Source: Escherichia coli (GTDB lineage: Bacteria > Pseudomonadota > Gammaproteobacteria > Enterobacterales > Enterobacteriaceae). From it: a stretch of DNA of 64,000 bases. The DNA lies in NCBI RefSeq assembly GCF_001677475.2, contig NZ_CP015229.1. The stretch is one strand, 5' to 3'. Position numbers and translations under genes: made by a program. The notes beneath the pieces were generated by a model. It worked only from the letters and a program-made list of their open reading frames with translations. It ran no database searches and had not been told where the DNA came from. Positions 37,948 to 41,278 of this stretch are shown piece after piece. Within the stretch, counting starts at the first letter, position 1. Each line of letters opens with the position of its first letter.

Positions 37948-39882
37948 ATGAATATATTCGATCACTATCGCCAGCGATATGAAGCTGCCAAGGACGAAGA
38001 GTTCACACTGCAGGAGTTTCTTACCACTTGTCGGCAAGATCGCAGTGCTTATGCCAACGCGGCTGAGCGGCTATTGATGGCTATCGGTGAGCCTGTCATG
38101 GTCGATACAGCCCAGGAACCCAGACTTTCTCGACTCTTTTCTAACCGGGTCATAGCACGTTATCCGGCATTTGAAGAGTTTTACGGCATGGAAGACGCGA
38201 TTGAACAGATTGTCTCTTATCTGAAACACGCGGCTCAGGGGCTGGAAGAGAAGAAACAAATCCTGTATCTGCTGGGGCCTGTGGGTGGGGGTAAATCATC
38301 GCTTGCTGAGCGACTGAAATCATTGATGCAGCTCGTACCGATTTATGTATTGAGCGCCAACGGTGAGCGTAGCCCGGTCAACGATCATCCGTTCTGTCTT
38401 TTCAATCCGCAGGAAGATGCTCAGATTCTGGAAAAAGAGTATGGCATTCCTCGCCGTTATCTCGGCACCATCATGTCGCCGTGGGCGGCAAAACGCCTGC
38501 ATGAATTTGGTGGCGATATCACTAAGTTCCGGGTAGTGAAGGTCTGGCCGTCAATTCTGCAACAAATTGCTATCGCCAAAACGGAACCCGGCGATGAGAA
38601 CAACCAGGACATCTCCGCGCTGGTAGGGAAAGTCGATATTCGTAAACTCGAACACTACGCGCAGAATGACCCGGACGCCTACGGCTATTCCGGTGCGCTG
38701 TGCCGCGCCAACCAGGGGATCATGGAATTCGTTGAGATGTTTAAAGCACCGATTAAAGTGCTGCATCCCTTGCTAACCGCCACTCAGGAAGGTAACTACA
38801 ACGGGACGGAAGGTATCTCCGCCCTGCCGTTCAACGGGATTATTCTCGCCCACTCGAACGAATCCGAATGGGTCACTTTCCGTAATAACAAAAACAACGA
38901 AGCCTTCCTCGATCGTGTTTACATCGTGAAGGTGCCGTATTGCTTGCGCATTTCCGAAGAGATCAAAATCTACGAGAAATTGCTTAATCACAGTGAATTG
39001 ACTCACGCCCCCTGCGCCCCTGGCACGCTGGAAACGCTGTCACGTTTTTCCATTCTTTCGCGCCTTAAAGAGCCAGAAAACTCCAGCATTTATTCAAAGA
39101 TGCGGGTTTATGATGGCGAAAGTCTGAAAGACACAGATCCCAAAGCCAAGTCGTATCAGGAATATCGTGACTACGCCGGTGTCGATGAAGGGATGAACGG
39201 TCTGTCGACGCGTTTTGCGTTTAAGATCCTCTCCCGCGTGTTCAACTTCGATCATGTAGAAGTGGCGGCAAACCCGGTCCATCTGTTCTACGTCCTGGAA
39301 CAGCAGATCGAGCGCGAGCAGTTCCCGCAAGAGCAGGCAGAACGCTATCTGGAGTTCCTGAAAGGTTATCTGATCCCGAAATATGCCGAGTTTATCGGCA
39401 AAGAGATCCAGACGGCCTACCTTGAATCCTATTCCGAATATGGGCAAAACATTTTCGACCGTTATGTTACCTACGCGGATTTCTGGATTCAGGATCAGGA
39501 GTATCGCGATCCGGATACCGGGCAGTTGTTTGACCGCGAGTCTCTTAACGCCGAGCTGGAGAAAATCGAGAAACCGGCGGGGATCAGTAATCCAAAAGAT
39601 TTCCGCAACGAGATTGTTAACTTCGTACTGCGCGCCAGAGCGAATAACAGCGGACGCAATCCGAACTGGACCAGCTATGAAAAACTGCGCACGGTTATTG
39701 AGAAGAAAATGTTCTCCAATACCGAGGAGCTGTTGCCGGTTATTTCGTTTAACGCCAAAACGTCAACCGACGAGCAGAAGAAACATGACGACTTTGTCGA
39801 CCGTATGATGGAAAAAGGCTACACCCGTAAACAGGTGCGTTTACTGTGCGAATGGTATTTGCGCGTACGTAAATCGTCTTAA
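37948..39882 (+). CDS. yeaG: PrkA-family protein kinase (AAA-type P-loop)
   Basis: ORF track 644 aa; P-loop GPVGGGKSS. Confidence 0.9.
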   Translation: MNIFDHYRQRYEAAKDEEFTLQEFLTTCRQDRSAYANAAERLLMAIGEPVMVDTAQEPRLSRLFSNRVIARYPAFEEFYGMEDAIEQIVSYLKHAAQGLEEKKQILYLLGPVGGGKSSLAERLKSLMQLVPIYVLSANGERSPVNDHPFCLFNPQEDAQILEKEYGIPRRYLGTIMSPWAAKRLHEFGGDITKFRVVKVWPSILQQIAIAKTEPGDENNQDISALVGKVDIRKLEHYAQNDPDAYGYSGALCRANQGIMEFVEMFKAPIKVLHPLLTATQEGNYNGTEGISALPFNGIILAHSNESEWVTFRNNKNNEAFLDRVYIVKVPYCLRISEEIKIYEKLLNHSELTHAPCAPGTLETLSRFSILSRLKEPENSSIYSKMRVYDGESLKDTDPKAKSYQEYRDYAGVDEGMNGLSTRFAFKILSRVFNFDHVEVAANPVHLFYVLEQQIEREQFPQEQAERYLEFLKGYLIPKYAEFIGKEIQTAYLESYSEYGQNIFDRYVTYADFWIQDQEYRDPDTGQLFDRESLNAELEKIEKPAGISNPKDFRNEIVNFVLRARANNSGRNPNWTSYEKLRTVIEKKMFSNTEELLPVISFNAKTSTDEQKKHDDFVDRMMEKGYTRKQVRLLCEWYLRVRKSS

Positions 39883-39994
39883 CAACCCTGGCCCGGTACA
39901 CATGCTACCGGGCCTACAACGACAGCGAACCGTGGGCCAGAGAAGCGGCAACACAGGCGTAGCATACAGTTGGCAAATGTAGTACGGGGGGCAT

Positions 39995-41278
39995 ATGACC
40001 TGGTTTATTGACCGGCGTCTGAACGGCAAAAACAAAAGCATGGTGAATCGCCAGCGTTTTTTACGCCGTTATAAAGCGCAAATTAAACAGTCGATCTCCG
40101 AGGCCATTAATAAGCGTTCGGTGACTGACGTCGACAGCGGCGAGTCCGTATCCATTCCCACGGAAGATATTAGCGAACCGATGTTTCATCAGGGGCGTGG
40201 CGGTCTGCGCCACCGCGTGCATCCGGGCAATGACCATTTCGTCCAGAACGACCGAATTGAACGTCCCCAGGGTGGCGGCGGAGGTTCCGGCAGTGGTCAG
40301 GGCCAGGCCAGCCAGGATGGTGAAGGTCAGGATGAATTTGTCTTTCAGATTTCGAAAGATGAGTATCTTGATCTGCTCTTTGAAGATCTGGCCTTACCGA
40401 ATCTGAAACAAAACCAACAACGCCAGCTGACCGAATATAAAACGCATCGTGCGGGTTATACCGCTAACGGCGTTCCGGCCAATATCAGCGTTGTGCGTTC
40501 ATTGCAGAACTCACTGGCACGACGCACAGCCATGACGGCGGGCAAGCGGCGGGAACTTCATGCGCTGGAAGAGAATTTGGCCATCATCAGCAACAGTGAA
40601 CCTGCGCAACTGCTGGAAGAGGAACGTCTGCGCAAAGAAATTGCAGAATTACGTGCCAAAATTGAACGCGTCCCTTTCATTGACACCTTCGATTTACGTT
40701 ACAAGAACTACGAGAAGCGGCCCGATCCCTCCAGCCAGGCAGTGATGTTTTGCCTGATGGACGTTTCGGGTTCAATGGATCAGTCCACTAAAGATATGGC
40801 TAAGCGTTTTTATATTCTGCTGTATCTGTTCCTTAGCAGAACGTATAAGAACGTGGAAGTCGTTTACATCCGCCACCATACTCAGGCGAAAGAAGTCGAT
40901 GAACATGAGTTTTTCTACTCGCAGGAAACTGGCGGCACCATTGTTTCCAGCGCCCTGAAACTGATGGATGAGGTAGTGAAAGAGCGTTATAACCCGGCAC
41001 AGTGGAATATTTACGCGGCACAAGCATCGGACGGCGATAACTGGGCCGATGACTCTCCGCTTTGCCATGAAATCCTGGCGAAAAAATTATTACCCGTCGT
41101 TCGTTATTACAGCTATATCGAAATTACCCGTCGCGCTCATCAGACACTGTGGCGAGAATATGAGCATCTGCAATCTACTTTCGACAACTTTGCGATGCAG
41201 CATATCCGCGACCAGGATGATATTTATCCGGTGTTCCGTGAACTGTTTCATAAACAAAATGCAACAGCTAAAGACTAA
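39995..41278 (+). CDS. yeaH: DUF444 (YeaH/YhbH family) protein, partner of YeaG
   Basis: ORF track 427 aa; Gly/Ser-rich low-complexity segment [19 protein letters not shown]. Confidence 0.85.

Follow-up and report, generated by a model that had tools for sequence, protein, structure and literature searches.

The yeaG-yeaH locus of Escherichia coli was analyzed in a 64,000-nucleotide stretch of contig NZ_CP015229.1 (RefSeq assembly GCF_001677475.2), referred to here as the window. In the list of open reading frames (ORFs), yeaG and yeaH encode proteins of 644 and 427 amino acids on the plus strand and are separated by 112 bp. A 435-bp intergenic region lies upstream, bordered on its other side by the divergent mipA gene (36766-37512, minus strand). 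The coordinates and sizes in the first-pass annotation, which was made from the letters alone, as well as the 112-bp gap and the P-loop GPVGGGKSS, all hold when compared with the ORF list and the sequence.

Table 1. Features of the yeaG-yeaH locus, in window coordinates
Feature	Position	Strand	Basis
mipA-yeaG intergenic regulatory region, 435 bp	37513..37947	.	ORF borders; 100% identical to K-12 MG1655
Conserved upstream block GATGAGTTGTTGATATGCCATTGAAATT	37710..37737	+	Kept in most Enterobacterales upstream regions (alignment)
sigma-S-type extended -10 element TCTACGCTTAA	37772..37782	+	Perfect match to consensus KCTAYRCTTAA
sigma-54 promoter, -24 GG / -12 GC, TGGCATGAGAGTTGCT	37829..37844	+	One mismatch to TGGCAC-N5-TTGCW
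93-nt 5' untranslated region (UTR) of the sigma-54 transcript	37855..37947	+	Putative start, 12 nt past the -12 C (37843)
SdsR small RNA pairing site CCTGTGCTAAAAA, just 5' of the ribosome-binding site	37917..37929	+	Complementary to SdsR UUUUAGCGCACGG
yeaG: PrkA-family AAA+ ATPase, 644 aa, family-specific alpha-helical C-terminal domain	37948..39882	+	ORF, Pfam, NCBIfam
Walker A / P-loop GPVGGGKSS (residues 110-118)	38275..38301	+	Read from sequence
YeaG C-terminal "PrkA kinase" domain (residues 375-644), predicted all-alpha	39070..39879	+	
yeaG-yeaH spacer, 112 nt, GC-rich hairpin at 39890-39914, no U-tract	39883..39994	+	Folding
yeaH: DUF444 protein, 427 aa (N-terminal region, low-complexity linker, C-terminal vWA/MIDAS domain)	39995..41278	+	ORF, Pfam, alignment, model, fold match
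Gly/Ser/Gln-rich disordered linker (about residues 91-112)	40265..40330	+	pLDDT < 50 at 94-106
vWA domain (about residues 236-420) with MIDAS residues D256-x-S258-x-S260, T315, D346	40700..41254	+	
Intrinsic terminator closing the operon	41283..41316	+	11-bp stem then TTTTT, -17.8 kcal/mol

Identity of the locus

YeaG matched the Pfam families AAA_PrkA (PF08298, residues 19-380, E 1e-187) and PrkA_C (PF06798, residues 382-636, E 9e-71) with 623.5 and 239 bits against cut-offs of 25, indicating a full-length member of the PrkA family, and scored 1342 bits with the NCBIfam equivalog NF011999 (cut-off 576). YeaH matched DUF444 (PF04285, residues 4-421, E 4e-191) with 636 bits against a cut-off of 27 and the equivalog NF003708 with 843 bits against 466. 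The gene identities and the homology to Bacillus PrkA/YhbH proposed at first pass are thus borne out.

The 4-kb region was found in 5424 of 5426 complete E. coli genomes at 95-99.5% identity. It shares with the yeaGH operon of K-12 MG1655 (b1783-b1784) the gene order, the 112-bp spacer, the 435-bp upstream region and the flanking genes, mipA on one side and cdgI/yeaI followed by dgcJ/yeaJ on the other, and differs only by strain-level variation. yeaG differs at 23 silent positions, leaving the protein identical; yeaH differs at 22 nucleotides, with a single effect on the protein (at residue 427, where the D of the window is a G in K-12); the spacer has two differences and the upstream region none. 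Because the proteins are near-identical and the upstream region is identical, experiments performed in K-12 apply directly to the window. That this locus is the known yeaGH operon, with its known regulation, is practically certain. Both genes are correctly annotated and already known, and nothing changes for genome annotation.

The AAA+ module of YeaG

The N-terminal two-thirds of YeaG is an AAA+ module. When YeaG was compared with 26 distant PrkA proteins of about 25-30% identity, the Walker A residues G110, P111, V112, G113, K116 and S117 were invariant, and so were E260/E263, N304 and D322-R323. The K116A substitution is a null allele in vivo (PMC4664914), and the PrkA of B. anthracis forms ATP-dependent oligomers and belongs to AAA+ clade III according to an AlphaFold 3 (AF3) model (PMC13001217). 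In the PDB, the Thermus PrkA structure 9xip matched YeaG residues 78-603 with an E value of 7.5e-51. This 692-aa protein, deposited as a "Serine protein kinase" with 30 chains in three entries (9xip, 9xiq and 9xir), is a full-length homologue of YeaG, and proteins of its type share on average 24-31% identity with YeaG. Its closest named relatives are from Thermus species (94-96% identity), and the one from T. oshimai, 95% identical, is encoded in a prkA-DUF444-spoVR operon. The literature searched contained no paper about these entries.

YeaG is not a member of the MoxR family: against the MoxR profiles (AAA_3/AAA_5) it gave a 27-residue AAA_5 match at the P-loop, with 18.2 bits against a cut-off of 22, and its sub-threshold P-loop matches were to AAA_5 and Mg_chelatase only. 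A role in anti-phage defense was considered as well and rejected, since PADLOC gave only a sub-threshold P-loop match to IetA.

YeaH carries a vWA/MIDAS domain

In the AlphaFold2 model of YeaH (mean predicted local distance difference test score, pLDDT, 86.5), the N-terminal region contained two long helices, the Gly/Ser-rich linker was disordered and the C-terminal domain was of the alpha/beta type. Invariant residues of the N-terminal region are D6-R7-R8, G154, G159 and R176. On fold comparison, the C-terminal domain matched von Willebrand factor A (vWA) domains, including that of proteasomal Rpn10, and it has their Rossmann-like alpha/beta fold. In an alignment of 113 YeaH homologues of 37-59% identity, the residues of the metal ion-dependent adhesion site (MIDAS), D256-x-S258-x-S260, T315 and D346, were invariant and formed a complete motif. 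According to the alignment and the model, YeaH carries a vWA/MIDAS domain, for which metal-dependent ligand binding is predicted. The DUF444 label given at first pass stands as a family name, although the family can no longer be called structurally unknown.

Neither single-sequence nor profile searches of YeaH against the PDB gave a match, and the vWA domain emerged only from fold comparison. YeaH has been described in the E. coli literature as resembling no known protein (PMC4664914, bioRxiv 10.1101/254623), probably because sequence searches alone miss this domain. The Gly/Ser-rich low-complexity linker noticed at first pass is real. Besides being disordered in the model, it has an equivalent in the 113 homologues, of 18-31 residues and low complexity throughout (median 77% G/S/Q/D/E/N/P).

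The C-terminal domain of YeaG: kinase or protease?

The first-pass annotation called YeaG a PrkA kinase, a label that its C-terminal domain did not sustain. Neither residues 375-644 nor full-length YeaG matched the Pkinase profile, even at E <= 10. The AlphaFold2 model of the domain (pLDDT 79.5, predicted TM score, pTM, 0.55) consisted of helices only, with no beta-sheet N-lobe and hence no bilobal kinase fold, and its comparison with fold libraries from which the solved Thermus PrkA 9xip was absent returned neither a kinase nor a Lon match. In YeaG, a conserved signature of catalytic Lys, HRD or DFG was not identified. Lysine 426, proposed as the catalytic residue, aligns with Asp in 26 of 26 Thermus-type PrkA proteins, where a Lys stands one position later; it is conserved only in the YeaG-like branch and is not an invariant catalytic lysine. 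For the Bacillus proteins, purified B. subtilis PrkA had no kinase activity and slow protease activity, with no ATP-binding site in its C-terminal domain (PMC9512850), and B. anthracis PrkA had neither activity (PMC13001217). Judged by profiles, alignment and model, the C-terminal domain of YeaG does not look like a kinase or a Lon protease.

A genuine Ser/Thr kinase acting in starvation on metabolic and regulatory targets such as AceA, with YeaH and the SpoVR-family protein YcgB as regulators or substrates within a signaling pathway, is a serious rival, albeit one we consider unlikely. The family is called a kinase in both NCBIfam and Pfam, and E. coli YeaG is cited as autophosphorylating and as phosphorylating casein and AceA in vitro (as relayed in PMC9512850 and bioRxiv 10.1101/072470). 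Moreover, K426A abolishes function in vivo (PMC4664914), and the overexpressed K426A protein does not produce the wild-type effect (PMC10954441). The likeness to Hanks-type Ser/Thr kinases consists of the name, the literature label and the reported in vitro phosphorylation, whereas the profile match, the bilobal fold, the Lys/HRD/DFG signature and the conservation of K426 are all lacking, two Bacillus homologues are without kinase activity, and a null K426A could equally be a structural or interface defect. Kinase activity of YeaG is possible.

That YeaG is a Lon-like, ATP-dependent protease breaking down regulators under starvation is poorly supported and highly improbable. B. subtilis PrkA slowly digested alpha-casein in an ATP- and Walker A-dependent manner (PMC9512850), but the similarity of YeaG to Lon in the PDB covers only residues 74-127, around Walker A, the Lon_C profile gave no match at E <= 10, and the helical domain has no Lon fold match. 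In addition, B. anthracis PrkA lost all protease activity once a trace E. coli amidohydrolase was removed; its weak protease signal was traced to this contaminant, and the same may explain the B. subtilis result (PMC13001217).

yeaG and yeaH form one transcription unit

The hairpin in the yeaG-yeaH spacer has a folding energy of -18.0 kcal/mol, and the 112 bp contain nothing resembling a terminator or a promoter. The spacer ranged between 3 and 212 nt across 75 loci and is therefore not a conserved RNA element. A structured RNA in the spacer was rejected on this ground, its sequence being no more conserved than its length, and the spacer as a whole folded no better than shuffles (z -0.85). In a delta-sdsR strain the YeaG and YeaH proteins both rise, even though the yeaG leader is the only place where SdsR pairs (PMC10954441). 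Deletion mutants of yeaG and yeaH share phenotypes (PMC4664914), and prkA, DUF444 and spoVR genes show cofitness of r > 0.7 in six bacteria (bioRxiv 10.1101/072470). yeaGH is one transcription unit, with two promoters in the 435-bp region. The functional link between YeaG and YeaH that had been asserted at first pass is upheld by their adjacency in 75 of 75 loci, the shared phenotypes and the cofitness.

That the two genes are mere neighbors with independent functions, separated by the gap into two transcription units, is poorly supported and can be set aside as extremely improbable: the gap is long for an operon and contains a stable hairpin, and yeaH was the one differentially expressed gene in delta-yeaG at N+ (bioRxiv 10.1101/254623), where the persistence of its transcript without yeaG may simply reflect the deletion construct, but the same-strand adjacency extends from all 75 loci to Thermus, Planctomycetes and phages, with the genes overlapping in some, and the lack of terminator-like and promoter-like sites in the gap, the identical mutant phenotypes, the cofitness and the joint response to loss of SdsR all oppose it.

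Regulatory elements upstream of yeaG

The sole ORF of the intergenic region (75 aa, 37724-37951) is not conserved even in E. albertii, and the region is therefore regarded as non-coding. The first-pass annotation had taken it for a long regulatory region and suggested searching it for sigma-S and sigma-54/NtrC sites. Both sigma elements were found, which supports a functional regulatory region, whereas a consensus NtrC site was not.

The consensus KCTAYRCTTAA had a single match in the 64-kb window, with 0.30 expected, and this sigma-S-type element lies about 57 bp upstream of the sigma-54 element and is conserved in the alignment of Enterobacterales upstream regions. From its position, transcription would start near 37787 and give a leader of about 160 nt. 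In Salmonella, yeaG reads fell from 5730 to 26 in a delta-rpoS strain, and yeaG with its 5' non-coding region showed about 220-fold rpoS dependence (PMC4330354), which TCTACGCTTAA fits.

The sigma-54 element was kept as TGGCAY-N5-TTGCT in 16 of 23 other Enterobacterales upstream regions aligned and was not found in the aligned regions upstream of yeaG in Vibrio, Alteromonadales and Aeromonas. The same core is bound by sigma-54 in Salmonella in chromatin immunoprecipitation (ChIP)-chip experiments (PMC3844500). The putative start at 37855 is position -93 from the ATG, exactly where the yeaG UTR construct of PMC10954441 begins. NtrC and RNA polymerase occupy the yeaGH promoter in nitrogen-starved E. 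coli (PMC4066584, PMC4664914), the NtrC binding in vivo having been detected by ChIP-seq (PMC4066584). The NtrC consensus TGCACC-N5-GGTGCA, with up to three mismatches, had no site within 37513-37947, and the scan returned 29 sites against 33.7 expected, a chance level. The best NtrC-like palindrome nearby, TGCACCACCGTAATGCA (two mismatches), lies in the yeaE-mipA interval (36694-36710), some 1.15 kb upstream of the sigma-54 promoter, and the count of such sites across the window is at chance. The conserved block at about -145 to -118 from the sigma-54 start has no NtrC-consensus match and is a candidate site for an activator or an architectural protein. A generic promoter scan yielded nothing above chance, and an Rfam scan of 36500-41600 found no known RNA family, with one chance-level ArcZ match in yeaG on the opposite strand (E 0.91).

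SdsR represses yeaG translation, as established with a reporter and a compensatory mutation (PMC10954441). Its pairing site is conserved in Enterobacterales by alignment, and the local duplex between SdsR and the leader reached -22.9 kcal/mol compared with -14.3 +/- 3.3 for shuffles, 5 of 500 of which were as good; the full-length SdsR/leader prediction was uninformative. The motif spans -31 to -19, with core pairing by eye at about -29 to -20, and PMC10954441 gives -31 to -22.

Two observations concern the variability of this region. An 868-bp stretch (37286-38153), reaching from the 5' end of mipA through the entire intergenic region to nt 206 of yeaG, had no differences from K-12, the rest of yeaG-yeaH differing by about 1.2-1.7%. 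This could be due to constraint or merely to a local recombination tract, and as the density of single-nucleotide polymorphisms nearby is low, their absence from the intergenic region is not strong evidence of extra constraint. In a subset of Enterobacter, Cedecea and Mangrovibacter (L007, L009, L010, L012 and L026), an unrelated sequence lies upstream of yeaG, without the sigma-54 element, the sigma-S -10 element or the SdsR site, and in L007 and L009 mipA is about 5 kb away from yeaG. The regulatory region has been replaced in these lineages.

A three-gene module outside Enterobacterales

Representative genomes were scanned, giving 80 gammaproteobacterial loci. The wide conservation of the pair claimed at first pass was supported, yeaG standing directly before yeaH in all 75 loci with enough upstream DNA. 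However, the description as a two-gene module was too narrow, since outside Enterobacterales the unit includes a third gene. ycgB, confirmed as SpoVR family, directly followed yeaH in 50 of 77 loci, all of them in Vibrionales, Alteromonadales, Aeromonadales and related non-enteric gammaproteobacteria and none in Enterobacterales, where ycgB is detached (about 630 kb away in K-12). Contiguous prkA-DUF444-spoVR genes, overlapping in some cases, were found in Vibrio, Shewanella, Thermus oshimai, a Gemmatales genome (Planctomycetes), metagenomic contigs and a jumbo phage, and prkA preceded DUF444 in every locus examined. Because ycgB adjoins the other two genes outside Enterobacterales, the yeaG-yeaH pair is an enterobacterial remnant of a three-gene unit, whose order matches the published cofitness in six bacteria (bioRxiv 10.1101/072470).

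The Bacillus PrkA-YhbH-SpoVR system and the contiguous operons of other phyla have the same Pfam families in the same prkA-then-DUF444 order, and the literature ties their expression to starvation or sporulation, as it ties the E. coli genes to stress and starvation, the role already named at first pass; the detached third gene sets E. coli and other Enterobacterales apart. YeaH scored 238 bits with the sporulation YhbH equivalog TIGR02877, below the cut-off of 468, and is therefore a homologue of YhbH and not an equivalog. Between E. coli and Vibrio, Shewanella, Colwellia or Pseudoalteromonas, YeaG was 81-88% identical, YeaH 62-75% and YcgB 69-80%. The higher conservation of YeaG than of its partners suggests very dense structural or interaction constraints. 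For YcgB, sequence searches of the PDB found no solved relative.

The trio was also observed on phage-like contigs (L085:3892-8735, L087:4051-9662 and L089:2485-7301). The last is the 344-kb jumbo Ralstonia phage RsoM2USA (ORF30-28), whose record labels each gene of the trio as hypothetical. PrkA proteins from the phages were 58-70% identical to E. coli YeaG, and L087 had an extra 308-aa ORF, with no Pfam match, between DUF444 and SpoVR. A DUF444 homologue occurred in 33 phage records, including 600-kb uncultured phages and Bacillus and Thermus phages. The record of Enterobacter phage LAU1 (MN688132.1, 30.8 kb; L090:1-3308) starts with yeaG and yeaH, the YeaH product being 93% identical to that of E. 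coli, followed by tail genes on the other strand; these two genes are most likely a host flank captured with the prophage, not phage cargo. In a 643-aa metagenomic protein (P0179), a full DUF444 domain is fused to the first 188 positions of SpoVR, which is either a genuine fusion, hinting at physical association, or gene-calling read-through at a contig end.

Directly past the yeaH terminator lie the GGDEF-domain genes cdgI/yeaI (MASE4 + GGDEF, 41425-42900) and dgcJ/yeaJ (about 43081-44571), so that cyclic di-GMP signaling genes adjoin the starvation operon, as in K-12.

A putative AAA+/vWA remodeling machine

The closest functional parallels to YeaG-YeaH are the AAA+/vWA-MIDAS remodelers RavA-ViaA, NorQ-NorD, CbbQ-CbbO, BchI-BchD and midasin. 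In such pairs, a client held by the MIDAS site is remodeled by the ATPase. Adjacent, co-oriented AAA+ and vWA genes, a feature of the MoxR-type pairs, are present in all 75 gammaproteobacterial loci as well as in distant phyla and phages. YeaG-YeaH differ from these systems in having SpoVR as a third partner, and YeaG is not of the MoxR family but has its own Pfam family, AAA_PrkA, PrkA being placed in clade III by an AF3-based analysis (PMC13001217).

The sigma-S promoter produces a transcript with a leader of about 160 nt and the NtrC-activated sigma-54 promoter one with a 93-nt leader; pairing with SdsR damps translation, and transcription stops at the hairpin past yeaH. YeaG and YeaH are two parts of an ancient PrkA-DUF444-SpoVR module whose SpoVR gene in E. 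coli, ycgB, lies elsewhere on the chromosome. In the mechanism that we propose, YeaG would oligomerize on ATP as an AAA+ ATPase, and the N-terminal region and flexible linker of YeaH would tether YeaH to it. A client, which may be YcgB or else a metabolic or regulatory protein, would be gripped at an acidic residue by the MIDAS site of YeaH and then remodeled through ATP hydrolysis by YeaG. The output would be the "metabolic brake" described in the literature for nitrogen-starved and stationary-phase cells. We regard it as an evenly balanced question whether YeaG as ATPase, YeaH as vWA/MIDAS adaptor and YcgB as third partner form a protein-remodeling machine, although we hold this to be likelier than a signaling kinase; the contact between YeaG and YeaH, the remodeling chemistry and the client are all three things that we infer. 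Operon, regulation and remodeling mechanism together are the best explanation overall, one toward which we lean slightly.

Several points weigh against this explanation. The analogy is functional and not phylogenetic, because the known AAA+ partners of vWA proteins (MoxR, chelatase and midasin) belong to a different AAA+ clade from clade III, the one proposed for PrkA (PMC13001217). The model of the YeaG C-terminal domain has moderate global confidence, as its pTM shows, and is unvalidated because 9xip was absent from the fold libraries. The cited in vitro phosphorylation by E. coli YeaG and the loss of function in K426A also count on this side, as does the missing consensus NtrC site in the intergenic region.

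The PrkA/YeaH/SpoVR trio is among the most widely conserved bacterial stress modules without agreed biochemistry, and it bears on how E. coli survives starvation and regrows, on Bacillus sporulation and on the fitness of many other bacteria. In work on E. coli, YeaG is still treated as a Hanks kinase, and the vWA/MIDAS domain of YeaH together with a YeaG C-terminus that does not look like a kinase redirects experiments. What the analysis adds to the known operon is the assignment of a vWA/MIDAS domain to YeaH, the negative outcome of the kinase and protease fold tests on YeaG and the three-gene framing, which together sharpen the long-standing question of what the module does and make it directly testable. 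Tentatively, PrkA/YeaG, YeaH and SpoVR/YcgB may represent an unrecognized class of AAA+/vWA-MIDAS remodeling or cofactor-loading machine built on a non-MoxR ATPase, and not a kinase pathway. Its ATP-driven action on a client, which may be YcgB or a central metabolic enzyme, would bring about quiescence, and it would be self-contained enough for jumbo phages to carry it and so manipulate host dormancy.

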